53,297 bases of DNA, taken from assembly GCA_902384685.1 (NCBI GenBank), contig CABMCU010000073.1:1-53297 (forward strand), in the 5' to 3' direction. The notes under the pieces are model-generated. The model ran no database searches. It was not told where the DNA came from and worked only from the letters and a program-made list of their open reading frames with translations. This DNA comes from an uncultured archaeon (GTDB taxonomy: Archaea; Thermoplasmatota; E2; DHVEG-1). Shown here one piece after another: positions 1,694-29,796 of the stretch. Position numbers and translations under genes: made by a program. Positions within the stretch are counted from its first letter, which is position 1; each line of letters begins with the position of its first letter.

Positions 1694-2245
1694 ATGATAG
1701 AAATAAAATTACAAAATATTGTAGCATCTACATCTTTTGCAGATAAGTTGGATCTTGATGTGATAGCACAATCATTGGAAGAAGCTGAATATGAGCCTGA
1801 GCAGTTTCCTGGGCTTGTGTATCGGTTGAGTAATCCGAAAACCGCTACCCTTCTATTTAGAAGTGGGAAGGCGAACTGTACTGGTGCAAAGAATATTGAA
1901 GATGTCAAAACCACTCTCAATATCATTGCGGAAAAACTGAAGAAGCTAGGTGTTGAGGTCTATAAAGACCTTGGGATCGTCATTCAGAATATAGTTGCTA
2001 CAGCTGATCTGGGGGGAGAACTTAATCTTAACGAAGTAGCTATATCTCTTGGTTTAGAGAATATAGAATATGAACCTGAACAGTTCCCCGGACTTGTGTA
2101 TCGTATCAAAGAGCCGCGTGTTGCGATGCTGCTGTTCGGCTCCGGTAAAATAGTCTGTGCAGGTGCAAGAAAGATACAGGATGTGTCATTAGCCGTAGAT
2201 AATTTATCAAAAGAGCTTTCTTCTTTAGGGCTTCTCCATAAGTAA
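1694..2245 (+). CDS. tbp: TATA-box binding protein
   Basis: Two direct repeats QNIVA...EYEPEQFPGLVYR...LLFxSGK. Confidence 0.97.
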   Translation: MIEIKLQNIVASTSFADKLDLDVIAQSLEEAEYEPEQFPGLVYRLSNPKTATLLFRSGKANCTGAKNIEDVKTTLNIIAEKLKKLGVEVYKDLGIVIQNIVATADLGGELNLNEVAISLGLENIEYEPEQFPGLVYRIKEPRVAMLLFGSGKIVCAGARKIQDVSLAVDNLSKELSSLGLLHK

Positions 2246-2402
2246 AAACTTTCTCGTACTATAATGGGGCAACGGAAAAAACCCCAAATCTGTTAAATAG
2301 AGGGATGTTCTGTTTTCATAAGAAAATCCTCAAAAATTCCCATGTACGAGTATTTATATAACTCAACTGATGAGTGAGAGAATATCAGGGATTTGATTTG
2401 TT

Positions 2403-3338
2403 TTGGTTAAAAAAGAAAAGCAGACAATAGAAGAGATCGTTCAATGTCCTGAATGTGGGAGTAACCATCTGAGTAAAGATTACTCTCGGGCAGAATTGGT
2501 GTGTAGAAATTGCGGATTTGTTCTTGATGAAGATATCATTGATCATGGACCTGAATGGCGAGCGTTTGATAGCGAACAGCGGGAAAAACGAGCTCGAACT
2601 GGGGCGCCAATGACGTATACCATTCATGATAAGGGACTCAGTACGATGATCGGATGGAAAAACAGAGATTCCTATGGGAAGTCAATTCCAACGAGAAATA
2701 GAGCGCAGATCTACCGTTTGAGAAAATGGGCACGGCGTATTCGGATTAGCGATGCAACAGAGAGAAGCCTTGCTATTGCATTTTCTGAGCTTGATAGAAT
2801 GGCATCAGGCATGGGACTTCCAAGAACGGTGAGGGAGACCGCTGCTGTGATTTATAGAAAAGCAGCATTGAAGAAATTGGTCCGTGGTAGAAGCGTAGAA
2901 GGTGTTATCACTGCAGCTTTGTATGCGGCATGCCGGCAGTGCCATGTGCCACGTACGCTTGATGAAATAAGTAGCATAGCACATATATCGAGGAAAGAGC
3001 TCGGAAGGACCTATAGATATGTCTCCCGTGAATTAGGATTAAGATTGTTACCGACTTCACCAGAGGATTATATTTCAAGGTTTTGCAGTGAACTGAAACT
3101 TAGTGGTGATGTGCGAGTGAAGACCTTGGAGATATTACAAGATGCTACATACCGAGAACTTACGAGTGGACGTGGCCCAACGGGTATGGCAGCAGCATCT
3201 CTCTATATTGCATCAGTTCTTTGTGGTGAACGGAGAACACAACGTGAGGTAGCAGATGTCGCAGGTGTAACAGAAGTCACCATTCGAAATCGCTACAAGG
3301 AAATCACAAAAAAACTAGATATAGCCATTGGCTTGTAA
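2403..3338 (+). CDS. tfb: Transcription initiation factor IIB
   Basis: CPECG...CRNCG zinc ribbon, GPEWRAF B-reader, two cyclin repeats, [10 protein letters not shown]; TTG start. Confidence 0.97.
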
Positions 3339-3639
3339 GTTTACCGTTCTCCCTATTTACTCTTCTTTATAGTTGTTAAGATTATTTCCATTGAAGATAC
3401 ATTGGAGGCTCTACCTTCTTCGTTGGTGAGGCTATCGTTTCCAATTTTTATCTTTTTTATTGTTGCATCTGTAACAAACCTGTTTCTCACATGATAAGCC
3501 ATATTACGTGGGGAAATGCAGGAGCAGTGAGGGTCAAAACCTGTATCAAACCCTCAAATCACTGACCTCCATCCGTCAATGTATAGCATTATATAGTGAT
3601 TGTATTATTTACGCAACCCAAAAAAGGATGTAATGAAAA

Positions 3640-3813
3640 ATGTATCGAGACAATAATAGAGGCGGTGGCTATGGTGACGCACCCCGAGTAATGCATAAGG
3701 TTACATGTGCAGATTGTGGAAAAGAAACTGAAGTTCCCTTTAAACCAGATGGTTCTAGGCCAGTTTACTGTCGGGACTGTTATCAGAAACATCGGCCACC
3801 AAGGAGATATTAA
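3640..3813 (+). CDS. CxxC-x17-CxxC zinc-ribbon protein (57 aa) with N-terminal RGG segment
   Basis: MYRDNNRGGGYGDAPRVMHKVTCADCGKETEVPFKPDGSRPVYCRDCYQKHRPPRRY; poly-T terminator follows. Not in the ORF track. Confidence 0.9.
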   Translation: MYRDNNRGGGYGDAPRVMHKVTCADCGKETEVPFKPDGSRPVYCRDCYQKHRPPRRY

Positions 3814-3892
3814 ATATCTCTTTTTTTTTATTTTTTTCTTTAAAAAACGATTAATTTTGTTTGAACAAGTAAAAGATCCTTCATTTCAGACC

Positions 3893-4039
3893 GTATTATC
3901 GGCCTGGATCGACCTTCATTTTCCTACTCTGTTGGTCCTTGGTAGGAACTTTCGGAACTACTACCACTATCGTAACCTTTATATGAAAGTGTCTACATGG
4001 TATTTCTACTTTTAATAGTATTTAAAGGAGGTAAACATT
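3893..4039 (+). promoter_or_regulatory. Thermosome upstream region, copy 1 (putative heat-shock operator, TATA, SD)
   Basis: Homologous to 27982-28128; 39-bp identical block 3924-3962; TTTATATGAA; GGAGGT SD. Confidence 0.7.
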
Positions 4040-5701
4040 ATGATGGCTGGAGGACAGCAACCAATTATCATCCTTAGAGAAGGAACGAAGCGAGATAAAG
4101 GAAAAGGCGCACAGTTAAACAACATTATGGCAGCACGAGCAATCTCCGATGCAGTGAAATCAACACTAGGTCCGAAAGGAATGGACAAGATGTTGGTCGA
4201 CTCTATGGGTGATGTGGTTATCACGAACGATGGAGCTACTATTCTTAAAGAAATCGATGTTGAGCACCCTGCAGCGAAGATGATCGTTGAAGTCGCCAAA
4301 TCACAAGATGAAGAATGCGGCGATGGAACAACATCAGCGGTGATTCTCACCGGTGAGTTGTTAAAATACGCTGGAGAACTTATCGAGCAGAACATCCACC
4401 CGACCGTTATCTGCGCAGGATACAAGCTTGCAGCAACCAAAGCAATTGTTGAACTCAACAAAATGGCGATACCGATAAAACCAGGGGACAAGAAAACCCT
4501 GAAAAACATCGCGATGACCTCGATGGCTAGTAAAGGTGCGAGCGCATCGAAAGATCTCCTCGCGGACGTCGTCGTTGACGCAATTACCAGCGTCGCAGAA
4601 CATATCGGTGATAAAACCATCGTTTATATGGACAACATCCATATCCATAAGAAACACGGCGGTAGTATCCAGGACACCAGGATTATAAAAGGTATCATTC
4701 TGGATAAAGAACGCGTCCATGAGGGAATGCCCCGACATTTAAAAAATGCAAAAATAGCACTTGTGAACGCGGCCTTAGAGATCAAAAAAACAGAGATTGA
4801 TGCACGTATTCAAATCCAAGACCCTACCCAGCTGCAAGCATTCCTTGATGAAGAGGAGTCCATGCTACGGAAAATGGTTGAGAAAGTCAAAAAAAGCGGT
4901 GCGAACGTTCTAATATGTGAGAAAGGCATTGATGATCTTGCGCAACATTTCCTCTCCAAAGAAGGTATTTACGCAGTTCGGAGCGCGAAGAAAAGCGACA
5001 TGGACAAACTCGCAAAAGCAACCGGCGCAACCGTTGTCGCAAACCTTTATGAGCTCTCAACAAAAGACCTCGGATTCGCAGGAACTGTCGAGGAGCAAAA
5101 GATCGGCGATGACAAGATGACGTTTGTTACGGACTGCAAGAATCCAAAGGCAGTCTCCATTCTTATACGCGGTAGCACCGAGCATGTAGTTGACGAACTT
5201 GATCGTGGTATGCACGATGCGTTGTTTGTTGTGAAAGTCGCTCTGGAAGATGGTAAAATGACAGCTGGTGGAGGCGCAGCCGCTACATGGATTGCTATGG
5301 CGTTACGAGAATATGCTACCACAGTCGGTGGACGAGAGCAGATGGCGATCGAAGCCTATGCAAACGCAGTTGAAATCATCCCCAAGACCCTTGCTGAGAA
5401 TGCGGGGTTGGATCCTATCGATATGATGCTTGAGGTACGCAGATCCCACAAGAAAGGCGGCAAGTACGCTGGTATTGACGTGTTAAATGGAAAAGTCAGT
5501 GACATGTTAAAAATCAATGTCATCGAACCACTTCGCGTCAGCGTCCAAGAAGTACAAGTCTCAACCGAAGCAGCAACCATGATCCTTCGGATCGACGACG
5601 TCATCGCCTCAAAGGGTGGCGGTGGTGGCGGAATGCCTCCAGGTGGACCTGGTGGTATGCCCGGTGGAATGCCTGGTGGCGGTGGGCTAGACGATTACTA
5701 A
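4040..5701 (+). CDS. ths: Thermosome (group II chaperonin) subunit, copy 1, with unusual substitutions
   Basis: TLGPKGMDKML, TNDGATIL, GDGTT, GGM-rich tail. Confidence 0.96.
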   Translation: MMAGGQQPIIILREGTKRDKGKGAQLNNIMAARAISDAVKSTLGPKGMDKMLVDSMGDVVITNDGATILKEIDVEHPAAKMIVEVAKSQDEECGDGTTSAVILTGELLKYAGELIEQNIHPTVICAGYKLAATKAIVELNKMAIPIKPGDKKTLKNIAMTSMASKGASASKDLLADVVVDAITSVAEHIGDKTIVYMDNIHIHKKHGGSIQDTRIIKGIILDKERVHEGMPRHLKNAKIALVNAALEIKKTEIDARIQIQDPTQLQAFLDEEESMLRKMVEKVKKSGANVLICEKGIDDLAQHFLSKEGIYAVRSAKKSDMDKLAKATGATVVANLYELSTKDLGFAGTVEEQKIGDDKMTFVTDCKNPKAVSILIRGSTEHVVDELDRGMHDALFVVKVALEDGKMTAGGGAAATWIAMALREYATTVGGREQMAIEAYANAVEIIPKTLAENAGLDPIDMMLEVRRSHKKGGKYAGIDVLNGKVSDMLKINVIEPLRVSVQEVQVSTEAATMILRIDDVIASKGGGGGGMPPGGPGGMPGGMPGGGGLDDY

Positions 5702-17287: not shown

Positions 17288-17443
17288 TTAGTCTTTTACT
17301 TCACCTATTCCTTTACAAACAGGACATATTCCTGTTGTACCGCAACGTATACAATTATCATCTGCCATAACTCCAATAATACTACCAGTTCCATTACAGT
17401 GACAGCATTCACCACTTCCACGACAACTTGCACATACAGCCAT
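17288..17443 (-). CDS. 51-aa stand-alone DnaJ-type CxxCxGxG zinc-finger protein
   Basis: MAVCASCRGSGECCHCNGTGSIIGVMADDNCIRCGTTGICPVCKGIGEVKD; GAGG SD; promoter motif at 17481-17496. Not in the ORF track. Confidence 0.85.
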   Translation of the reverse strand: MAVCASCRGSGECCHCNGTGSIIGVMADDNCIRCGTTGICPVCKGIGEVKD

Positions 17444-18064: not shown

Positions 18065-18670
18065 TCATTCCCAAACGAGAATTATACAGAACCTACATAG
18101 TACCTCCGAATGCAAAAATCTACCAAGGAAGTCATCAATTTTGGATTGTTTCTCCTTAGGAATTGAGTAATACCTGTTTATTGATTCCTTAATTCTCCGT
18201 GTCTTCCTCCAATGATTTTTACCAAGGAACACCCTTTTCTCATGAATATCGATGTCAGTGTTGAAAACCTGCGATACCTTCGCTAGATCTTGATATGAGA
18301 TAATCCTCGATGTATTCTGCTTCATCAACTCTAAGAGGGCAAGTTTATTCTTATCCTCTAGATAATAACAGGATTTATTCTTGAACTGAGACCGTTTAAT
18401 CGAAGGAAAATATCGTTGTAATGCTCGGAGAGCATTCCGATTCTCCTCTGTATAGACATATCCTTTCGCTATAAGTTGCTTCAATAGTTCAAGTGGTTTT
18501 CCGCTGACGTACGGCTCCCGTTTGTATTTATTTGGGAGATCCTTTGTATGTTTGTAAACTGTTGTACGATCGATATGCATCTCCTTGGAAACCTGGAACT
18601 TCGATTTACCTTTCAGAATTTCCTCTCGTATTTGCTGAATATCCTCTTTAGTAAGATGTCGTATCATCAC
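18065..18670 (-). CDS. HTH DNA-binding protein with C-terminal PIP-box-like motif
   Basis: GKSKFQVSKEMHIDRTTVYKH HTH; QSKIDDFL. Confidence 0.75.
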   Translation of the reverse strand: MMIRHLTKEDIQQIREEILKGKSKFQVSKEMHIDRTTVYKHTKDLPNKYKREPYVSGKPLELLKQLIAKGYVYTEENRNALRALQRYFPSIKRSQFKNKSCYYLEDKNKLALLELMKQNTSRIISYQDLAKVSQVFNTDIDIHEKRVFLGKNHWRKTRRIKESINRYYSIPKEKQSKIDDFLGRFLHSEVLCRFCIILVWE

Positions 18671-21547: not shown

Positions 21548-21746
21548 TTATCCAAATTGATTAGTAATTTCAATATCTGCGTTAAAAACCTGGGATACTC
21601 TTGCTAAATCCTGATATGAAATGATCCTTGTAGTATTCTGCTTCATCATTTCCAGGAGTGCGAGCTTATTTCTATCTTCCAGATAGTAACATGATTTGTT
21701 CTTAAACTGAGATCGCTTTATTGAAGGGAAATACCGTTGTAATGCT
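21548..21746 (-). pseudogene. 5'-truncated paralogue of the HTH gene at 18065-18670
   Basis: Reads ALQRYFPSIKRSQFKNKSCYYLEDRNKLALLEMMKQNTTRIISYQDLARVSQVFNADIEITNQFG*. Confidence 0.85.
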
Positions 21747-23877
21747 GTCCTATTACAACTGGTTTGATGTAATCGCCTATTTTTTCATCCGATCTCATTA
21801 ATTCCTTTCTCGTTATTTCATCTACAATAAACGCCTCGTTTAATCCAGTTTTTAAACCGTAAAAAATTTTATTTCCGACATAGTCTTCAATCGGTATACT
21901 ATTGGCCTTTATTTTTTTTAGAATATCATTTGCCTCTTTCCTTTGGATGTTCCAATCATTCTCTCCAAATTCCTTTTGATTTATTATAAACTGTTTACTT
22001 TTAATATACTCCTCTAAAGAATCAAAATTCAGTGTTTCCATTTTACACACTTGGATTTTTGGATTTAGTTTGTTTATTTTTCTTATTACGATTATACAAG
22101 GATAAATTGTTGCTTCTGGAAATACCTTAAGGTCTCCAAAATCAATGAAGGTTTCTATCCAATATTTACTAATAAATTTACGTAAATTGGCTCCGTAACC
22201 TGCTCTAAGCCACTTGTTAGATACAATCATTCCGAAGTAACCGCCATCTTTAAGTAACTTGATTTCACGTTCAAAGAAATATACATATAAATCGGCCATC
22301 CCATTATACACTTCATAATTTTTCTGGAGGTATGGTTTTAATGCTGAAAATTCCTCCTGTCTTACATATGGTGGATTGCCGATTACAACATCGAAACTTC
22401 CTTCTTTAAAATCTCCCTGCCATTTGAATGCATTATATTCTACAATAGTTTCATCGTCAATTACGGAATTACCATGTTTAATGTGTAAATCTATTTCTTC
22501 TGGTAATCTCCTATTTTTCTCTGCCGCTTTTAATAATAGATTTAATTTTGTGATCTCAACAGCTTTATTATCCAGGTCAACCCCGTAGAGATTATTTTTC
22601 AATATCTCCGTTTTTACAGAATATAAGCCCTGACTATCAAACATACGTTGTTTTGAACTTTTTTCAGATGAAATATTTACACGTAGATAATCAAATGCTT
22701 TAATCAAAAAAGAACCAGAACCACACGCAGGGTCTAGAACCTTAATTTTCTTTGCCTTAATCTTCTTATCTTTTAACAATTCCCCGACAGTGTTTTTAAC
22801 GATGTAATCCACAATATAGGTGGGAGTATAATATATCCCTTGCTCTTTTCTGTGTGCCTGTCCATTTGTAAGTTTTGCTTTCCCTGTTTTACTTTCCAAT
22901 AATATTTTACCCAAGTATTGTTCATAAACCTGTCCAAGAAGATCGGCAGTTATCCACTCAAAATTATAGATATATCCTTCATTTTTTGAAGTATAAAGAT
23001 ACCGAATAAGTTTCTTAATAATCTCGCCATTGATTGTTATTTTATCGCAATCATTATCCTTATTAATAGCAAATAATCCACTGTTATAGACATCATTGTA
23101 TTTTTCAAAAATCTCTTTTAACTTCGAGTATGCTCTGTTATCTGGAACTGCTACTGCATCTTTCAGTATCAAATTCTCAGGATTGATTCCCGTATCTTCA
23201 CATTTTCTGATAAAAATAAGTCGGTCAATGATTCTTTGAGTTATCTCTTCCTTTTCATTTGGTTGGTATTTCCCATGATAAATTTTTTCTATATCATCAG
23301 CTATGTACTTTCGTATTAAAATTAAATCGTCGAGAAGCGGTTTATCTATCGTAATCCTTTTCTTTAATAATCCTAGATTTTCTGCCTTCTTCAATAACAG
23401 GTTTTGTTCAAAACTTGATTTAGATAGTAATAATAAATCATGGATATTTTCAATATATTCCTCTGGTGTACTAAATACCATTATTTTCCTTTTAACAATA
23501 TTTTCTTCTTCTACACAAAATACCTTTAATTCCTCAAAATTTGTAGAGATCGCAATAGGAACCGATTTTGATAAGGCATAGGATACAACCTGTGTATCTG
23601 CATCTTTATATAATGGTACACCGATTTTTTTTACCTCCAAGAAGAATACTTTTTTATCTCCAATGTAAAATGTGTAATCAGCGAAACCTCGTTTACCTTC
23701 CCGTTGTGTCTTTTCTCGTTTTTTAAAATCCTTTTCTGTCCAACCCAGATGTTTGAATAACGGTTCGATTAGTTTTGTTTCTATAGATGCCTCAGATTCT
23801 TTTTTGTATTCCTGATAGTTTATTCTAAATTCATCAATCAGGTTTTGTACTTTTGTTTTTATCTGTTCATCAGTCAT
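21718..23877 (-). pseudogene. Type IIG (Eco57I/TaqI-like) fused restriction endonuclease / N6-adenine methyltransferase, C-terminally truncated
   Basis: ADY...EVK nuclease motif, GIYYTP, LDPACGSGSFL, GNPPY; runs into the HTH remnant at about 21746 and loses the target-recognition C-terminus. Confidence 0.85.
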
Positions 23878-23948
23878 AAGTAAGATGTGATATTGTTCGT
23901 TTCTTCTTTAATTTTTGGCAATGACTCATCCCATTAATTCTTGATTGT

Positions 23949-24728
23949 CTATATACATTTTTTTGGGGGATAATACAATCCGATAATCATCCAGACAGGA
24001 TACATGGAATGAGTCCCAACAAAAAAATGTAAATCACATTTTTCTATCATCATTGTATAATATCTTTGATAGATTTTCTCCCATAATACTTCAGGAGTTT
24101 GATAAATATGACGCCAACTACGATACGATTGAAATAATTCCCAATCTTCACAAGTCATATTATGATTACATAAACAACTCTTTGTGCAAGAAAAATGGTA
24201 TTTGAATATATGTGGCAATTCTTCCAAAAGTGTCCTTTCTTCACCCAATAAAGTCATTTGTCTCCCTTGAATAATATCAGTATCCATATCTTCAAGAGGT
24301 TTAGTTGTAAAAAAATTATGAATAACCGATGGTTTAACAAGTCCTAAAGATGTTCTCTCTTCTTTAAAATCAAATTGTAAATCTTCTATTGTACATTTAG
24401 GCATCGATAATATTATTTTATCCCGTTCTTCCCAATTTACTGGTTTTTTTGTTAGTAGATCATCAATAATTTTAATGGAATCTGGACGAAGTTTAAAGCT
24501 TTCTTTTCTACTTAGTTTTTCATCAGTTGCTTTTTTTACATCGGCTTCAATCCAAGTGTATTTAGGTATTTTTGTTCCACCTCTAAAAGTTTCAAATGGG
24601 ACAGGATAAATTCTTATCCACTCACCATCTTCAGTAATCCCTGCTGTACAGACTACAGAACCATGTCTTTTACTACTTTCTGGATATGCCTTTACAACCA
24701 ACAATATCTTCTTTTTTTCCCAGCTCAT
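23949..24728 (-). CDS. Conserved hypothetical protein (KAYP...VCTAG...WIRIYP; predicted OB-fold nucleic-acid binding)
   Basis: 259 aa; ATGA overlap with the upstream ParB-ASCH gene; CxxxCxxxHxxxC cluster. Confidence 0.75.
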   Translation of the reverse strand: MSWEKKKILLVVKAYPESSKRHGSVVCTAGITEDGEWIRIYPVPFETFRGGTKIPKYTWIEADVKKATDEKLSRKESFKLRPDSIKIIDDLLTKKPVNWEERDKIILSMPKCTIEDLQFDFKEERTSLGLVKPSVIHNFFTTKPLEDMDTDIIQGRQMTLLGEERTLLEELPHIFKYHFSCTKSCLCNHNMTCEDWELFQSYRSWRHIYQTPEVLWEKIYQRYYTMMIEKCDLHFFVGTHSMYPVWMIIGLYYPPKKCI

Positions 24729-25738
24729 ACAATCATTTCAATATTTTTTTTCTTTTTAATTTTAAAAATTATTGTATTCACTGTTTCATTTGGATCCCAG
24801 TTTCCATGAAGATTTTTCCATACTTCCTTAAATTCTTCAAGTGTATATCCACCCTCTCGTTTGGCATCTTCTTCTGTAAAATCTCCTAATTTTTTCTTTT
24901 CAATTTTTTTAACAATTAAGTCTGCAAAAGCTGGTTGCCAAAGATTTGCTCTTATTATTGCTCCTTCTCTAATTTTAGGATCAAGCGATTTTCTACTTGT
25001 CTGTATTTTTATCCCATCTAATATAGGTTTCATATGAGAGAGTCTAAATATTAATTCGGCTGGTTCTTGTTCCACTTCTTCAACCAATTCCTTAATAGAT
25101 TTATTTTTGTCCTGTTGAACCTTTTTCGTTATTTTTATTACATCGTCCCTTGTTATTTTTTTTTCTGCTACTTCTTTAACAAGTTCTAATTGTTTTGATG
25201 GTTCTTTTACTGTTTTTGCTATTATTAATGCCTCTCTACTTGCTATCTTACCTATTGGCGTTCTTCCTCTTTCATCTGCTGTAGCTACATATTTTTGAAT
25301 TTCTGGAGAGATTTCCCGAAATGCAGAAATCCATCTGTGAATGGTAGTGGTTCCAAAACCCAATTTTTCCCCCATGGAGAAAATTGTTGGATAATCTGTT
25401 GAGTAATCCTCCATTAATTTAGTACAACATTTTCCTTTTTCAATATCAGTCAAATCTTCCCTTTCAATATTCTCTATGAGATTCAATTCGATAACTTCTT
25501 TATCTGAAAATTGTTTTATGATTGCTGGGATTTTGTCTAATCCAGCTTGTTTTGCGGCTCTATATCTTCTTTCACCCACAACAACTTCATAATAATCATT
25601 TTTTTTCCTAATAATGATTGGTTCAAGCAAACCGAATTTTTTAATACTTTTAGATATTTCATCAATTTTTTCCTTATCGAATGATGATCTCGGATTCAGT
25701 CTATTTGGCTTAATTCTTCTTAAATCTATTTCTGACAT
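24725..25738 (-). CDS. ParB/Spo0J-family protein fused to a C-terminal ASCH domain
   Basis: NPR, GLLEPI, GERRYRA, ENIEREDL, HTH; C-terminal ILDGIKIQTSR...FTEEDAKREG. Confidence 0.85.
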   Translation of the reverse strand: MSEIDLRRIKPNRLNPRSSFDKEKIDEISKSIKKFGLLEPIIIRKKNDYYEVVVGERRYRAAKQAGLDKIPAIIKQFSDKEVIELNLIENIEREDLTDIEKGKCCTKLMEDYSTDYPTIFSMGEKLGFGTTTIHRWISAFREISPEIQKYVATADERGRTPIGKIASREALIIAKTVKEPSKQLELVKEVAEKKITRDDVIKITKKVQQDKNKSIKELVEEVEQEPAELIFRLSHMKPILDGIKIQTSRKSLDPKIREGAIIRANLWQPAFADLIVKKIEKKKLGDFTEEDAKREGGYTLEEFKEVWKNLHGNWDPNETVNTIIFKIKKKKNIEMIV

Positions 25739-25762
25739 ATTTTTCCCTTGTAAAACAAATAG

Positions 25763-26167
25763 TTATTTTAATTTCCAAACTATTCCTCTTTTTCTATCTC
25801 TAATTCTAATTAATTGAATATCTTCTTCTAATTTTTTTACCCATTTATTATTAGGGACTTTTTGTGGGAAATTTTCAATTTTTTTTATATCTGTCCATGT
25901 CAGACCAGATGAATTTTTATTTAATAACAATTTAATTCTTTCTTTAAATTCCTTATACGGAAGTTTCTCTTCTTTTTTTATAAGAATTTCTTTAATTTCT
26001 CCATTTTTCAAAGATTTTATTATGAGAGTTTTTCCTTGTATTTCGTCTTTTAACCATTCTCCTTCTTTCCATCCTATTTTTTCAATTGTGGATGGTGGAA
26101 TTACGATAATCCATTTTGGATATTCCTTATTATCTACAACTCTCGATAATTGTTTTTGTAATCTCAT
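25763..26167 (-). CDS. AbrB/MazE/SpoVT-type regulator with C-terminal wHTH-like domain
   Basis: IVIPPSTIEKIGWKEGEWL...LIIK swapped-hairpin signature. Confidence 0.75.
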   Translation of the reverse strand: MRLQKQLSRVVDNKEYPKWIIVIPPSTIEKIGWKEGEWLKDEIQGKTLIIKSLKNGEIKEILIKKEEKLPYKEFKERIKLLLNKNSSGLTWTDIKKIENFPQKVPNNKWVKKLEEDIQLIRIRDRKRGIVWKLK

Positions 26168-26193
26168 TTAGAAATAGGTATAGATTTTGGAGT

Positions 26194-26291
26194 ATTATAA
26201 ACTTTTAGGTGCCGAAAAGTATAAATAGCGTGTAATGTATATACATTAGGCACCTAAAATTATAAGTGCCTAAAGGGAGTTTAGGGCTCCC
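26194..26291. promoter_or_regulatory. Divergent promoter with clustered palindromic operators
   Basis: ACTTTTAGGTGCCGAAAAGT (26201-26220), TAATGTATATACATTA (26233-26248), TTAGGCAC-N12-GTGCCTAA (26246-26273). Confidence 0.65.
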
Positions 26292-27855
26292 TCAGGCTGG
26301 AGACAAACGAATGCTGCTAGGCAATCGAAATATCTCCAAAGAAACCATAGAATTGGAGATATATAAGATATTCGAGCAATGCAAACAAGAAAAAGAAATC
26401 ACGATAGTGGATTATCTCAATCGATTACATTTAGATTGTTTTAATGATAATTACCGATCTATAAAATTCCCATACGAATCATTATTCAAACTCCTTATTT
26501 TTCAGGAACTCAAAGGAATAAAATTCCAAGCACAACTAGAAAGATACCTTCGGTTGCATAAACAAGAGCTTCACAAACTCAACATGACATCAGTACCAAA
26601 CCAAAGGACGATAAGTTATTTCATCAATAATATTCTTGATGAAGAAACAAAACAATTGATAGATTTTATCGCCTCGAAAATTGAGGAAGTCTCAAACAAA
26701 TTCGGAATACTACTCGATACAAATATCATACAACCAACACAACCTAAAAAACAAGCAGAACGAACATACTACCATAACAAAAACATCAAGATAAGAGAGA
26801 TCAGCACTCTTTTCAAGAAACGTTTTTCATCTGTAATCGAACTGAATACCAAGAGAAATTCCGTTTACCAAAAAAATGATTTCATCGACCTCGTGCTTCA
26901 TATGTGTAACACGAATGACTTCGCAGAAAACGGAAGTAAAACATTCCAACTACAGAGAACAAAGACCCCAAATGGAGACACGCTCCTCTATCATCTGAAG
27001 GATTACAAGGATATCTACCAGATGAAACGCATGTTCGTCTCGATGTTTGAGATGATCTGGGAGACCGCACGCAAAGCAAACCAATTCCACAAGATAGTTG
27101 ACTGTTCTATTGATTACACAGGTTGGCACTATTATGGAGACAAGAATGCCCCGATGGTCACTGAGGGCAAACCTGATCGAGGGACTACACACTACTATAA
27201 ATTCGCCACAATAACCATATCGGAACGAAATCAACGATTCACACTCCTAGCAATACCTGTTGGACCATTTGACAACAAACAGGAGATACTCAGAACGCTC
27301 CTTGAATATGCAATGCAACGGATGAAGATAAGACGATTGTATGTTGATAGAGGGTTCTTTGACTCTGAATCCATACAACTCTTCAAGTATTACCATCTAA
27401 AATTCCTCATGCCATGCACAGCTAACGAACGAATCAAAAAGATACTTGAGATTGTTCCATCTCCAACAGTAATCAAAGATTATGAGATGAAAAGCGCTGT
27501 GTTTAACGTTGTTGTTGTCAATGATGAAAATGGTGTGAAGAGAGCGTTTGCGACCAACATAGACTTCAATGAAAACGATGTCGGATTAGCAGAGCGATTA
27601 TTCAATCTCTACAGCAAACGATGGGGAATAGAAACATGCTACCGAGTGAAGAAACATTCATTCAGACCAAAGACCACATCAAAGAATTATTTCATTCGAT
27701 TGTTTTATTTTATGTTCTCAGTGTTATTGTACAATCTTTGGCTCCTTACAGATATTCTCGTATGCTTAGCTGTTCTAGGTGTCTTCAATGGTAACCATAT
27801 CATTACATCCAAGTATTTCTGTAGCATTTTTGTTTTGGTGGATCCTGGAGGCTGA
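26266..27855 (+). mobile_element. DDE transposase (ISH3/IS4-like) with extra N-terminal domain; start may be ATG 26311
   Basis: SIDYT, YVDRGF, YSKRWGIETCYR catalytic motifs. Confidence 0.88.
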
Positions 27856-28128: not shown

Positions 28129-29796
28129 ATGATGGCTGGAGGACAGCAACCAATTATTATCCTTAAAGAAGGAACGAAGCGAGAAAAAGGAAAAGGCGCA
28201 CAATTAAACAACATTATGGCAGCACGAGCAATCTCCGATGCAGTGAAATCAACACTTGGTCCAAAAGGAATGGACAAGATGCTGGTTGACTCTATGGGTG
28301 ATGTAGTCATCACGAATGATGGAGCAACCATTCTTAAAGAAATCGATGTTGAGCACCCGGCGGCAAAGATGATCGTCGAAGTTGCTAAATCACAAGATGA
28401 AGAATGCGGTGACGGAACAACATCAGCCGTGATTCTTACTGGTGAGTTGTTAAAATACGCCGGAGAACTTATCGAGCAGAACATCCACCCAACCGTTATC
28501 TGTGCAGGATATAAGCTCGCATCAACCAGAGCAATTGCTGAGCTGAACAAAATGGCGGTACCGATAAAACCAGGAGATAAGAAAACCCTGAAAAACATTG
28601 CGATGACCTCGATGGCTAGTAAAGGTGCGAGCGCATCAAAAGAACTCCTCGCGGACGTCGTCGTTGACGCGATTACCAGTATAGCAGAACACATCGGTGA
28701 TAAAACCATCGTAGACATGGACAACATCCAGATCGAGAAGAAACACGGCGGCAGTATTCAGGACACCCGGATTATAAAAGGAATCATTTTGGACAAAGAA
28801 CGTGTTCATGAGGGAATGCCACGGCATGTAAAAAATGCAAAAATAGCACTTGTGAACGCAGCCTTAGAAATCAAAAAAACAGAGGTTGACGCACGTATTC
28901 AAATCCAAGACCCTACTCAGTTGCAAGCATTTCTTGATGAAGAGGAATCTATGCTACGAAAAATGGTCGAGAAAGTCAAAAAAAGCGGTGCGAACGTTCT
29001 GGTCTGTCAGAAAGGCATCGATGATCTTGCACAACACTTCCTCTCCAAAGAAGGTATTTACGCAGTCCGACGCGCGAAGAAAAGCGATATGGACAAACTT
29101 GCAAAAGCAACCGGCGCAACCGTTGTTGCAAATCTTGATGAGCTCTCGTCAAAAGATCTCGGATTCGCGGGAAATGTCGAAGAGCAAAAGATCGCCGATG
29201 ACAAGATGACGTTTGTCACGGATTGCAAGAATCCAAAGGCAGTCTCCATTCTTATACGCGGTAGTACTGAGCATGTGGTCGACGAACTTGATCGTGGTAT
29301 GCACGATGCGTTGTTTGTCGTGAAAGTCGCTCTGGAAGACGGTAAAATGACGGCGGGTGGAGGCGCAGCCGCCACATGGATTTCTATGGCGTTACGAGAA
29401 TATGCTACCACCGTCGGTGGACGAGAGCAGATGGCGATCGAAGCCTACGCAAACGCAGTTGAAATCATACCCAAGACCCTTGCTGAGAACGCTGGGTTGG
29501 ACCCAATTGATATGATGCTTGAGGTACGCAGATCTCACAAGAAAGGCAGCAAGTACGCTGGTGTTGACGTGTTAAATGGAAAAGTCAGTGACATGTTGAA
29601 AATCAACGTCATCGAACCACTTCGCGTCAGTGTCCAAGAATTACAAACCTCAACTGAAGCAGCAAACATGATCCTCCGGATCGACGACATCATCGCCTCA
29701 AAGGGTGGCGGTGGTGGTGGAATGCCTCCTGGCGGTATGCCTCCTGGCGGCGGAATGCCCGGTGGAATGCCTGGCGGCGGGATGGACGACTACTAA
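28129..29796 (+). CDS. ths: Thermosome subunit, copy 2 (canonical residues)
   Basis: GDGTT, CQKGIDD, AVRR, GGM tail. Confidence 0.97.
   Translation: MMAGGQQPIIILKEGTKREKGKGAQLNNIMAARAISDAVKSTLGPKGMDKMLVDSMGDVVITNDGATILKEIDVEHPAAKMIVEVAKSQDEECGDGTTSAVILTGELLKYAGELIEQNIHPTVICAGYKLASTRAIAELNKMAVPIKPGDKKTLKNIAMTSMASKGASASKELLADVVVDAITSIAEHIGDKTIVDMDNIQIEKKHGGSIQDTRIIKGIILDKERVHEGMPRHVKNAKIALVNAALEIKKTEVDARIQIQDPTQLQAFLDEEESMLRKMVEKVKKSGANVLVCQKGIDDLAQHFLSKEGIYAVRRAKKSDMDKLAKATGATVVANLDELSSKDLGFAGNVEEQKIADDKMTFVTDCKNPKAVSILIRGSTEHVVDELDRGMHDALFVVKVALEDGKMTAGGGAAATWISMALREYATTVGGREQMAIEAYANAVEIIPKTLAENAGLDPIDMMLEVRRSHKKGSKYAGVDVLNGKVSDMLKINVIEPLRVSVQELQTSTEAANMILRIDDIIASKGGGGGGMPPGGMPPGGGMPGGMPGGGMDDY

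Follow-up and report, generated by a model that had tools for sequence, protein, structure and literature searches.

The locus raises the question of whether an orphan ParB-type protein fused to an ASCH domain, encoded next to a transposase gene in an AT-rich island, belongs to a new defence or modified-base system and, if so, which of its neighbours take part. We analysed it within a 53,297-nt stretch of DNA from an uncultured archaeon (GTDB lineage Thermoplasmatota; E2; DHVEG-1), referred to here as the window. The layout proposed in a sequence-only reading was borne out (Table 1). Four genes are co-oriented, all of them minus-strand ORFs between 21718 and 26167, and G+C is 0.23–0.33 over about 16–27 kb vs 0.40–0.47 on either side. 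The adjoining ORF does encode a transposase (25 bits, cut-off 23), and the genes for the 337-aa and 259-aa proteins overlap by ATGA, the upstream stop and the downstream start sharing positions 24725–24728. The functional unit, however, consists of three of these genes (134-aa, ParB-HTH-ASCH and 259-aa tandem-OB), not four.

Table 1. Features of the cassette and its surroundings, in window coordinates.
Feature	Position	Strand	Description
DDE (IS4-like) transposase ORF	26266-27855	plus, divergent from cassette	Pfam DDE_Tnp_1
Intergenic control region upstream of 134-aa gene	26168..26273		inverted repeats, TTTATA-like boxes
134-aa ORF	25763-26167	minus	accessory protein, MazE/AbrB-like + winged-helix (by model)
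ParB-HTH-ASCH ORF, 337 aa	24725-25738	minus	ParB_N + HTH + ASCH
ParB N-terminal (CTPase-fold) domain, residues 2-91	25466..25735	minus	Pfam ParB_N 2e-31; TIGR00180
ParB-type helix-turn-helix + linker, residues about 92-215	25094..25465	minus	profile match to ParB-family structures
ASCH domain, YqfB-like, residues 238-327	24758..25027	minus	Pfam ASCH; K244, T247, R249, E295
Tandem-OB (DuOB-like) ORF, 259 aa	23949-24728	minus	PADLOC PDC-M19B
Type IIG R-M ORF, 719 aa, truncated	21718-23877	minus	neighbour outside module
Second copy of 181-nt piece of 201-aa HTH gene (18245-18425)	21566..21746		direct repeat family D1, 79% identity

The ParB assignment of the 337-aa protein is firm (TIGR00180 at 134 bits, NCBIfam cut-off 58.45). 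The GERRYRA patch lies inside ParB_N and is followed by an ENIEREDL box at the C-terminal edge of the domain; G55, E56, R57, R58, A61, E89, N90 and R93 are invariant among 30 sequences. A family profile matches Spo0J (1vz0) over positions 5–215 at 1e-39, and Noc and ParB structures as well, and PF17762 is precomputed for many relatives, the HTH/linker region being the part most divergent from the counterpart in genome G090 (33% identity). ParB_N and ASCH each occur in a single copy in the genome of origin, which is 85.5% complete. No ParA-type family was found in 40 of the 43 non-overlapping window ORFs, which were scanned with Pfam; the other three, judged by eye, are thermosome, GrpE and DnaK. 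The absence of parA thus agrees with the earlier proposal of an ASCH-fused, ParB-type orphan clamp outside ParA-dependent partitioning.

The C-terminal domain is recognised by Pfam as ASCH (2.1e-6, 28.8 bits vs a cut-off of 21.2), and GIKIQTSR and EDAKREG, the two other motifs singled out beforehand, are both present in the protein. ASCH profiles weakly match E. coli YqfB (1te7, at 6.5e-7 and 5.5e-5) and also N4-acetylcytidine amidohydrolase 9kyf. In the profile alignment the Lys, Thr, Arg and Glu of the ASCH domain fall on K21, T24, R26 and E74, the catalytic residues of YqfB (PMC6972931), and all four are invariant in 30 relatives and in a 12-sequence set; the predicted Lys/Thr/Glu site is intact, with an Arg in addition. 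A reader or eraser of modified cytosine may reasonably be inferred from this domain combination. In the accessible portions of the ASCH literature, the substrates from which ac4C is taken are nucleosides and tRNA, not DNA (PMC6972931; bioRxiv 10.64898/2026.02.27.708502).

The 259-aa protein matches PADLOC PDC-M19B over its full length (E 3e-61) and belongs to Pfam's DuOB kind. Its 775 homologues form a very conserved family (mean column identity 52% in an alignment of relatives), and a PDB sequence search returned no match. The confident predicted model (pLDDT 88.9, pTM 0.87) shows RPA/PriB/HIN-like tandem OB folds, which bears out the OB-like character first suggested for it. Foldseek retrieved RPA70 (4gop_C, 1e-4) and HIN-200 domains with this model, and VIA-align retrieved PriB (Z 8.9), archaeal RPA (Z 8.6) and HIN (Z 7.6, 157 residues aligned), all of them values that the tool itself rates as common. 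C27, C181, H189 and C193 form a probable Cys/His zinc site, and the protein also carries a CEDWE motif.

That ParB-ASCH works with a partner protein, as had been suggested, is supported by its recurring pairing with this conserved, translationally coupled gene at other loci. Of the metagenome ParB-ASCH loci in our neighbourhood survey, 53 leave 800 nt of room or more, and 32 of these have the OB gene directly downstream of ParB-ASCH; because it recurs in so many independent loci, the pairing is far beyond chance. The wider OB family has another habitual companion. A DUF488 (PDC-M19A) gene adjoins the OB relative in all 80 genome loci; in 74 it lies directly upstream, in the same orientation. 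Burroughs and Aravind reportedly described such DUF488-DuOB neighbourhoods in 2023; the Pfam families concerned are PF04343, PF22751 ('Active DUF488-N3 subclade') and PF22557 ('DuOB'), and DUF488 is of a rhodanese/phosphatase-like type. What the DUF488 proteins carry at the N-terminus differs: nothing extra, an unassigned domain, ParB-HTH or the 134-aa module. The ParB-HTH-DUF488 form adjoins the same OB partner in six loci (L041, L051, L054, L060, L061, L074). DUF488 and ASCH were never found together at one locus (0/160), the genome of origin has no DUF488 gene, and the 337-aa protein matches neither PDC-M19A nor DUF488 at E up to 10. On the OB-protein tree, ParB-ASCH-linked rows lie in at least three places and the window protein nests among DUF488-linked ones, a scatter that indicates repeated partner swaps. 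We therefore put at roughly even the chances that the three-gene mobile cassette is a domain-swapped variant of the candidate DUF488-DuOB conflict system (PADLOC candidate PDC-M19). The ASCH and DUF488 folds are unrelated, and equivalent roles would thus follow from position only.

The remaining 21 of the 53 ParB-ASCH loci have no OB gene, and most belong to a single clade whose neighbourhood is conserved and housekeeping-like, with genes for an HD protein, GNAT, radical SAM, DUF362 and PolD. The fusion can thus function in the partner's absence and away from islands. This large clade, with an HD protein adjoining and a GNAT acetyltransferase nearby, favours a role in chromatin or nucleic-acid maintenance, in which N4-acetylcytosine or related acyl lesions would be cleared from the DNA, the RNA or the nucleotide pool of the cell itself and the OB protein would handle single-stranded intermediates. 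The reported ac4C-removing activity of ASCH proteins would suit such a role, as would two fused domains that both appear directed at cytosine nucleotides (CTP binding; N4-acylcytidine hydrolysis). We nevertheless regard maintenance as unlikely for the OB-linked form, which is patchy (among 118 genomes of the order, 11 have the module), sits here as a mosaic cassette in the AT-rich island beside a transposase, and frequently has integrases, transposases and R-M genes nearby: about 8 of 13 ParB-ASCH-OB loci have mobile or defence-type neighbours, and about 3 of 13 lie among housekeeping genes.

The 134-aa protein, with 17 homologues, belongs to no Pfam, PADLOC or NCBIfam family (no Pfam family at E up to 10). 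Its AlphaFold model (pLDDT 80.2) suggests that a MazE/AbrB-like beta domain at the N-terminus is followed by a winged helix at the C-terminus; the fold matches are weak, to the winged helices of Rpc34 and ScpB and to MazE/AbrB at E 0.25–0.56. The AbrB label given to it at first keeps this faint fold resemblance but has no Pfam backing. The protein is likely the cassette's transcriptional regulator. The module has a gene of its own upstream in L001, L060, L138 and L169, and it is fused to the N-terminus of DUF488 in L072 and L076. The control region ahead of it, which overlaps the first bases of the transposase ORF as listed, contains three copies of a TTAGGCAC-like motif, at 26208-26216, 26246-26254 and 26265-26273; they are arranged as inverted repeats and cluster within 66 nt, with a window-wide motif count not above chance. 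The region is 91% identical to its G090 counterpart over 101 nt, compared with about 70% for flanking coding DNA, and is a putative operator.

A regulator of this kind would also fit a toxin–antitoxin or abortive-infection module, in which the tandem-OB protein would be a toxin that coats ssDNA and stalls replication, the upstream protein (DUF488 or ParB-ASCH, with DNA-binding additions in the style of antitoxins) would neutralise it and the 134-aa protein would repress the operon. The 4-nt overlap with the larger, regulator-like gene first, the separate or fused MazE/AbrB-like module, the highly variable N-terminal additions of the upstream protein and the small, mobile, patchily distributed cassette all agree with this, and MNT/HepT pairs often adjoin the wider family (10/80 and 8/80 DUF488-DuOB loci). 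On the other hand, invariant residues of the enzyme type are retained in the upstream proteins, the OB protein is strongly conserved and folds like no known toxin, CTP clamps are not known from antitoxins, and ParB-ASCH persists alone in the OB-less loci. We consider such a module improbable.

The sequence-only reading had counted the Type IIG R-M enzyme as a member of the system, so that clamp and OB protein would act together with it. The gene is co-oriented, only 71 nt from the OB gene, and R-M genes are common neighbours across the wider family (type I R-M subunits in 8/80, 7/80 and 5/80 DUF488-DuOB loci). Its residues 6–692, however, match positions 6–737 of a 1011-position PADLOC IIG profile: the nuclease and methyltransferase domains are kept (Pfam Eco57I, N6_Mtase, HSDR_N_2), whereas the C-terminal target-recognition region is missing, leaving the protein about 230 residues short. 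In the closest relatives (67% and 63% identity) the frames run to 951 and 932 aa, matched by query residues 1–712 and 2–618, and the 3' end of the gene falls inside the repeat copy listed in Table 1, which marks the rearrangement that cut it. Linkage is missing elsewhere too. Those two relatives come from genomes without the OB gene (G016, G077), G021 and G022 carry IIG and OB genes on different contigs, and another gene comes after the cassette in G090. No comparable IIG enzyme is linked to the pair in 80 DUF488-DuOB loci or 11 other genomes of the order, nor in 80 ParB-ASCH loci, one weak opposite-strand match aside. The four-gene version is contradicted by the truncation and the missing linkage, which makes it highly improbable; the Type IIG gene is a bystander and is itself broken.

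Signs of mobility extend beyond composition. The identity of the cassette to that in G090 differs by region, and G090 has a 54%-identical transposase in the same position and orientation. Together with the 91%-identical intergenic region in the two genomes, the integrase or resolvase genes near L085 and L142 and the enrichment of DUF488 genes in Methanoperedens plasmids (PMC9674854), this raises the prospect that the cassette serves a mobile element rather than the host, with ParB-HTH marking element DNA and the OB and ASCH parts aiding its replication or protecting it. OB-like clusters occur in phages too, and the family is therefore not confined to the host side. Against such an accessory role, ParA is absent from the scanned window ORFs, most OB-protein partners have no ParB at all, and transposase linkage was seen at two loci only, with no transposase of this kind adjoining the others. 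Pattern-limited viral searches found the OB gene on one contig only, and none of 80 viral ParB matches extended into ASCH. We consider this explanation quite improbable.

Under the preferred reading, a domain-swapped conflict cassette, the 134-aa protein would autoregulate the operon through the inverted repeats, which are conserved. The ParB part, with its invariant GERR and EN..R motifs, would bind CTP and load on DNA as a clamp; an archaeal ParB-HTH-DUF488 relative binds CTP experimentally, according to accessible parts of PMC12704722. The tandem-OB zinc protein, by its fold, may bind the exposed ssDNA, or the DNA ends, of an element that is invading or replicating, and the ASCH domain, with its YqfB-type Thr-Lys-Glu triad and Arg, would hydrolyse an N4-acyl or similar amide-linked cytosine mark carried by the OB-held nucleic acid or by the nucleotides from which it is made. 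The outcome would act against foreign DNA. Our best reading is thus that a CTP clamp would bring a base-deacylating enzyme to DNA that the OB protein holds.

Several known systems share parts of this design. The N-terminal domain and HTH match canonical ParB clamps (Spo0J, Noc and ParB structures, 1e-35 to 1e-39), whereas ASCH takes the place of the C-terminal dimerisation domain of ParB, Noc and KorB, and ParA is not found in the window. YqfB-type amidohydrolases share the ASCH fold and, within that weak match, the four catalytic positions, but YqfB, 103 aa long, acts on nucleosides as a free monomer, and here ASCH forms the C-terminal end of a DNA clamp. With RPA70, PriB/SSB and HIN-200 the OB protein has in common a predicted tandem OB architecture, the first OB being closest to PriB and RPA and the whole chain to HIN domains; it has no sequence similarity to them, and the Cys/His site and CEDWE motif set it apart. 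The ParB-HTH-DUF488 proteins (Kaljevic et al., PNAS 2025, PMC12704722) share the ParB CTPase fold and HTH. Archaeal ParB-ASCH fusions are already in print there, given as an archaea-enriched architecture with ASCH termed RNA-related; in its accessible portions the description includes no OB partner, which the cassette has, and ParB-ASCH was not found among the proteins in six of its supplementary files. The view that this is not a named system accordingly stands for the ParB-ASCH form itself, which is outside PDC-M19A, but not for its partner, which is PDC-M19B. PDCs were nominated through their embedding in R-M, BREX and DISARM loci, as far as the available text of Payne et al. (bioRxiv 10.1101/2024.01.29.577857) goes, and PDC-M19 by name was absent from a main-text literature search. 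The cassette resembles DUF488-DuOB systems in its tandem-OB partner, the small enzyme-like domain encoded directly upstream and the variable DNA-binding additions, but its enzyme domain is of the ASCH amidohydrolase type, not the DUF488 type. With PDC-M19 (A, a DUF488 protein; B, a protein of about 260 aa) it shares the two-gene, co-oriented, overlapping pair and the accessory, island-like context; the A component is missing, and ParB-HTH-ASCH stands in its position.

All four co-oriented ORFs that the sequence-only reading had placed at 21718–26167, in an AT-rich island adjoining a transposase, are present in the window, and every motif that it cited is found in the translations. The island has a G+C content of 0.23–0.33 across ~16–27 kb, compared to 0.40–0.47 on either side, and the archaeal markers of the window are TBP, TFB, thermosome, a family-B polymerase, and a Rad51-family protein (Pfam PF08423). 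Comparisons with related loci establish the anatomy and the evolutionary pattern of the cassette. Based on its sequences, we read three of the four genes, encoding a 134-aa protein, a 337-aa ParB-HTH-ASCH protein (ParB-ASCH), and a 259-aa tandem-OB protein (OB protein), as a putative DUF488-DuOB-type conflict module. The earlier interpretation thus survives in its combination of ParB-ASCH with an OB partner, and changes in that the system comprises three genes rather than four, its restriction-modification (R-M) gene is broken, and part of it was already catalogued.

The island lies directly upstream of a chaperone cluster, which starts with the second of two thermosome (chaperonin) genes in the window and continues with ORFs that are GrpE- and DnaK-like by eye. 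Within the island, a 51-aa ORF consists almost entirely of CxxCxGxG-type repeats, which resemble a DnaJ-type zinc finger.

Table. Features of the window, with identity to the corresponding parts in G090, a genome of the same taxonomic family but another genus.
Feature	Window coordinates	Strand	Identity to G090	Remark
Thermosome gene, first copy	4040-5698			
51-aa ORF	17288-17443	minus		CxxCxGxG-type repeats
201-aa HTH gene	18065-18670			
181-nt direct repeat, first copy	18245-18425			79% identity between copies; piece of the 201-aa HTH gene
181-nt direct repeat, second copy	21566-21746			
719-aa ORF (Type IIG)	21718-23877	minus		
259-aa ORF (OB protein)	23949-24728	minus	34-36%	
337-aa ORF (ParB-ASCH)	24725-25738	minus		
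ParB N-terminal domain			53%	part of the 337-aa ORF
HTH region			33%	part of the 337-aa ORF
ASCH domain			89%	part of the 337-aa ORF
134-aa ORF	25763-26167	minus	76%	
TTAGGCAC-like motif cluster	26198-26273			three motifs
DDE transposase ORF	26266-27855	divergent from cassette		
Thermosome gene, second copy	28129-29796			start of the chaperone cluster

The 337-aa protein contains a ParB_N domain (Pfam, 2e-31, residues 2–91) and an ASCH domain (Pfam, 2.1e-6, 28.8 bits against a cut-off of 21.2, residues 238–327), and it scores 134 bits against a cut-off of 58.45 with the NCBIfam ParB/RepB/Spo0J domain model TIGR00180. The HTH model PF17762 is precomputed in many relatives, and the window protein alone does not match it at E 0.01. 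The family is large and uniform (~334 aa), and ASCH (PF04266) is precomputed in 116 of its best 120 relatives. A profile of 30 sequences matches Spo0J (1vz0, 1e-39) through position 215, as well as Noc and ParB structures, and over its last 100 positions, at the C-terminus, it hits E. coli YqfB (1te7, 6.5e-7) and 9kyf, the entry of an N4-acetylcytidine amidohydrolase. Using an ASCH-only profile, K244, T247, R249, and E295 align on YqfB K21, T24, R26, and E74; all four are invariant in 30 full-length sequences, and also in 12 ASCH segments drawn from both OB-linked and OB-less genomic contexts. The assignment of the C-terminal domain to ASCH, first made by eye, is borne out by Pfam, by both structural matches, and by the retained catalytic residues.

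The N-terminal CTPase-fold domain has a GERRxRA box; its GERR part (G55–R58) and E89/N90/R93 are likewise invariant in the 30 full-length sequences; we take these to be the CTP-binding and hydrolysis boxes of ParB. Of the 43 non-overlapping ORFs of the window, 40 were scanned with Pfam and none of these has a ParA-type family, the other three being thermosome, GrpE, and DnaK by eye, in agreement with the earlier remark that no parA is present. Partitioning by a ParABS system was rejected because neither a ParA among the scanned ORFs nor a C-terminal dimerisation domain is present. In YqfB, changing K21, T24, or R26 to alanine eliminates activity, and turnover of the E74A mutant drops 100- to 1000-fold (PMC6972931). 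CTP binding has been shown for an archaeal ParB-HTH-DUF488 protein (Kaljevic et al., PMC12704722), a study that also lists ParB-ASCH as an architecture enriched in archaea; ASCH does not occur in the six supplementary files of that study that were searched.

The 259-aa protein matches the PADLOC model of PDC-M19B, one half of a candidate phage-defence pair (PDLC04508, 3e-61, residues 4–257 on positions 2–263 of 269). Pfam gives no match for the protein itself; its DuOB model (“dual OB-containing domain”) is reached by a few of the relatives. Among 913 candidates, 775 proteins belong to the family at E <=0.001, and conservation is strong, with C27, C181, H189, and C193 followed by E-D-W-E invariant in 31 sequences. 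Solved structures gave no match by sequence at E <=10. For the AlphaFold model (pLDDT 88.9, pTM 0.87), the top solved structures in Foldseek are RPA70 (4gop_C, 1e-4), HIN-200 domains, Teb1, and LEF-3, and clusters structurally similar to it occur in the Atlas in bacteria and Uroviricota. VIA-align pairs residues 1–100 with PriB (Z 8.9) and an archaeal RPA domain (Z 8.6), and the whole chain with a HIN domain (157 residues, Z 7.6); because Z values near 8 are common by the tool's own remark, we base the fold on how well the matches agree with each other and on the Pfam and PADLOC names. The original “OB-like” label holds on the strength of these RPA, PriB, and HIN matches and of the names DuOB and PDC-M19B. 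A complex prediction for full-length ParB-ASCH with the OB protein scored 0.00, with controls absent, and speaks neither way.

To place the pair in context, we surveyed the best 80 of 183 genome loci with a relative of the OB protein. A gene of one cluster neighbours the OB relative in 80/80 of these loci, directly upstream and co-oriented in 74, mostly with a 4-nt overlap. Cluster representatives are DUF488 (Pfam) and PDC-M19A (PADLOC), and true PDC-M19A partners match PDLC04505 at 1e-25 to 5e-81. The DUF488 domain is constant in the partners and the N-terminal additions vary: DUF488 stands without one in two bacterial loci, most loci have a ~130-aa N-terminal domain of no assigned family, and ParB_N and HTH_ParB precede DUF488 in L041, L051, L054, L060, L061, and L074. 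The 134-aa module of the window type is fused to DUF488 in L072 and L076, and lies upstream as a gene of its own in L001 and L060. For the N-terminal domain of the common 274-aa DUF488 partners we considered Panacea/DUF4065, suggested by its motif, and dropped it after Pfam gave no such match. By sequence, the DUF488 profile matched nothing meaningful among solved structures. In L061 (Promethearchaeia, 1797–4328), three consecutive OB-family matches (22%, 29%, and 43% identity to the query) precede the ParB-HTH-DUF488 gene, and the OB partner appears to be tandemly multiplied there.

The reciprocal survey covered the best 80 of 491 metagenome loci with ParB-ASCH, 53 of them with at least 800 nt downstream. 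The OB gene, as detected by the family HMM, lies directly downstream and co-oriented in 32/53 of those with room (33 loci when clustering is used instead), and two representatives from ParB-ASCH loci match PDC-M19B. ASCH has no match in the 80 DUF488-OB loci (best 80 of 183), and DUF488 none in the 80 ParB-ASCH loci (best 80 of 491). Neither PDC-M19A at E <=10 nor Pfam DUF488 matches the 337-aa or the 134-aa protein. The suggestion that the locus matches no named system is only half right, as the OB partner is catalogued as PDC-M19B. Because the genome of the window (85.5% complete) has no DUF488 match, one ParB_N, and one ASCH, its OB protein has ParB-ASCH as sole candidate partner.

The 21 OB-less ParB-ASCH loci fall mostly into one clade (29 rows, SH-aLRT 98) nested among OB-linked rows in a midpoint-rooted quick tree. 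Their common neighbourhood has an HD protein upstream and GNAT, radical-SAM, DUF362, an MFS transporter, or PolD nearby; for instance, the metagenome loci L093, L098, L103, L116, L126, and L143 have the HD-domain gene directly upstream and PolD only sometimes. This conserved neighbourhood indicates that the fusion also exists stand-alone in a stable context, and the clade may be an offshoot of the module with a housekeeping role.

In a quick tree of 117 OB proteins, the rows linked to ParB-ASCH require at least three changes, and the OB protein of the window groups with its homologues P0001–P0005 in a clade otherwise linked to DUF488. Its best genome relatives (49–52% identity) are DUF488-linked, and most ParB-ASCH-linked OB proteins share only 22–41% identity with it. 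The same three genes occur in G090 (L179, G090:C13, 6941–9226, corresponding to 23949–26167 of the window) at uneven levels of identity (Table), and the HTH and OB parts may have been exchanged or may be diversifying together. A transposase in the matching place in G090 is 54% identical to that of the window. Downstream of the OB gene, the window has the truncated Type IIG gene and G090 encodes a PD-(D/E)XK protein on the opposite strand. These differing downstream genes and uneven identities indicate that the cassette ends after the OB gene and that its parts have recombined. In six cases, for example P0001/P0126/P0253, homologues of all three proteins come from the same source and from contigs of equal length, a circumstantial sign that they may be co-located.

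The 134-aa protein has 17 homologues and no match among Pfam, PADLOC, or NCBIfam models, including no Pfam family at E <=10. Its predicted structure (pLDDT 80.2, pTM 0.49) has a beta-rich N-terminal half (pLDDT 71–82) and a C-terminal half that is helical with a hairpin. Foldseek returned nothing at E <=0.001; the top rows are the winged helices ScpB and Rpc34, with MazE and AbrB at E 0.25–0.56 for the N-terminal half, and the profile matched nothing meaningful by sequence among solved structures. The protein may plausibly be an AbrB-like regulator. The protein accompanies ParB-ASCH in 7/69 loci with upstream room (best 80 of 491), a gene of its type lies between the ParB-ASCH and OB genes in L104, and it is an optional accessory. 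Upstream of the gene, three TTAGGCAC-like motifs in inverted orientation surround TTTATA-like boxes. The region is kept in G090 (L179, 9167–9266) at 91% identity over 101 nt, above neighbouring coding DNA. The cluster may act as an operator, as a site where ParB loads, or as the end of a transposon; since the 134-aa protein is far better conserved between the window and G090 than the ParB HTH, we infer an operator for the 134-aa protein.

The Type IIG gene, which the sequence-only reading had counted as the fourth member, carries the Pfam domains HSDR_N_2 (27.8 bits against 25), Eco57I (1.2e-45), and N6_Mtase (1.9e-26), and the motifs DPACGSG and NPPY can be read in its translation. The PADLOC IIG profile (1011 positions) is matched over positions 6–737 only. 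Within the order, the two nearest relatives share 67% and 63% identity with it; their open frames run to 951 and 932 aa and align with query residues 1–712 and 2–618, respectively. The window ORF ends within the second copy of the 181-nt repeat. Judged by these alignments, the gene lacks ~230 C-terminal residues. The genomes holding those relatives, G016 and G077, have no match to the OB gene; in G021 and G022 the IIG and OB genes are on different contigs, and the 160 DUF488-OB and ParB-ASCH loci (best 80 of 183 and best 80 of 491) contain only distant methyltransferase-domain matches. A four-gene system including the R-M gene was thus rejected, as this gene is truncated and unlinked to the module in these other genomes and loci. 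Of the proposed co-occurrence in other genomes, the ParB-ASCH/OB pair recurs and the Type IIG gene is a bystander.

The second repeat copy, a fragment of the 201-aa HTH gene, abuts the truncated gene. Between the copies, 3.3 kb contain a gene of only ~23–27% G+C for an 816-aa M28-peptidase-like protein, and this region looks like an insertion or rearrangement.

The OB gene was detected in 11 of the 118 genomes of the order, that of the window included, two of the eleven being fragments, and in 7/43 of the high-quality genomes. One remnant (L170, G058:C56, 1504–1635) has 46 codons at 87–91% identity, and another (L171, G102:C139, 574–702) has 43–50 codons at 58–63%; such short remnants in related genomes suggest decay or loss of the module. 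Genes next to DUF488-OB pairs (best 80 of 183) include those for type I R-M subunits (R in 8, M in 7, and S in 5 of the 80 loci), MNT (in 10), HepT (in 8), and a methyltransferase-Mrr fusion (in 5). Around OB-linked ParB-ASCH, ~8/13 loci contain genes of mobile or defence type (transposase, integrase, resolvase, type III R-M, methyltransferase, Schlafen/AlbA_2, DUF499, HerA, PD-(D/E)XK) and ~3/13 have housekeeping surroundings. Using two peptide patterns, only one viral contig with an OB gene was found, and none of the 80 viral ParB matches kept reached the ASCH part.

Family members carry the Pfam names “DuOB” and “Active DUF488-N3 subclade”, which presumably point to the 2023 work of Burroughs and Aravind. 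That work reportedly placed DUF488 in a rhodanese/phosphatase-like clade with predicted DNA-end processing in conflict systems. In the literature searched, we found no functional study of DUF488, only unrelated matches to “DuOB” or “dual OB”, and no description of a ParB-ASCH and OB pairing; the name “PDC-M19” is absent from the paper texts searched. PDCs were predicted because their genes lie inside R-M, BREX, or DISARM loci, and seven other candidate systems of the same study, PDC-M19 not among them, were confirmed experimentally (bioRxiv 10.1101/2024.01.29.577857).

By analogy, DUF488 and ASCH could have equivalent roles, and the strongest argument is position: they occupy the same slot, with the same partner and the same optional additions (ParB-HTH and the 134-aa module), are never found together, and have been swapped more than once. 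In our preferred model of the mechanism, the OB protein would hold single-stranded or end-containing DNA, the ParB part would load and move on DNA using CTP, the ASCH head would hydrolyse an N4-acyl-type mark on cytosine, and the small 134-aa protein would repress the operon. The main doubts about this model are that the DUF488 and ASCH folds are unrelated, that a large ParB-ASCH clade is without the OB protein, and that the known ASCH substrates are nucleosides and tRNA (PMC6972931; bioRxiv 10.64898/2026.02.27.708502). In a bolder generalization, ASCH and DUF488 would be interchangeable eraser heads of one immune strategy, with which a DNA-bound platform, the tandem-OB protein joined here by a CTP-driven ParB clamp, strips a protective covalent mark from invader DNA or nucleotide precursors, in this case an N4-acyl group on cytosine. 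We consider this generalization unlikely. If true, defence through de-modification of foreign nucleic acid would be seen here for the first time, a YqfB-type amidohydrolase would for the first time have a role directed at DNA, and the DUF488-DuOB class as a whole would become accessible to biochemistry. Modules of the DUF488-DuOB (PDC-M19) type occur widely, and the swap of DUF488 for ASCH brings in known chemistry with all catalytic residues conserved. It thus offers a concrete hypothesis for the enzyme half, the hydrolytic removal of a nucleic-acid modification, for which the ParB-ASCH variant supplies simple point mutants. An orphan archaeal protein with a ParB CTPase fold also gains a defined two-partner context, of interest for the roles of ParB proteins outside partitioning, and the annotation of the locus is corrected with regard to the R-M gene.

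Compared to Type IIG enzymes of the Eco57I/MmeI kind, the window gene has the nuclease and the gamma-class N6-adenine methyltransferase but is missing the C-terminal target-recognition domain. ParB-ASCH shares with ParB/Spo0J of ParABS systems the ParB_N CTPase-fold domain, the GERRxRA box, and the central HTH, whereas it has no adjacent ParA and carries ASCH in place of the C-terminal dimerisation domain. With respect to PADLOC PDC-M19, the window pair is without the A component (DUF488), but has the B component, the adjacency, and the co-orientation, with an ATGA overlap between the 337-aa and 259-aa genes. Finally, in common with YqfB-type ASCH amidohydrolases, its ASCH domain keeps the equivalents of the Lys21/Thr24/Glu74 triad and of Arg26.
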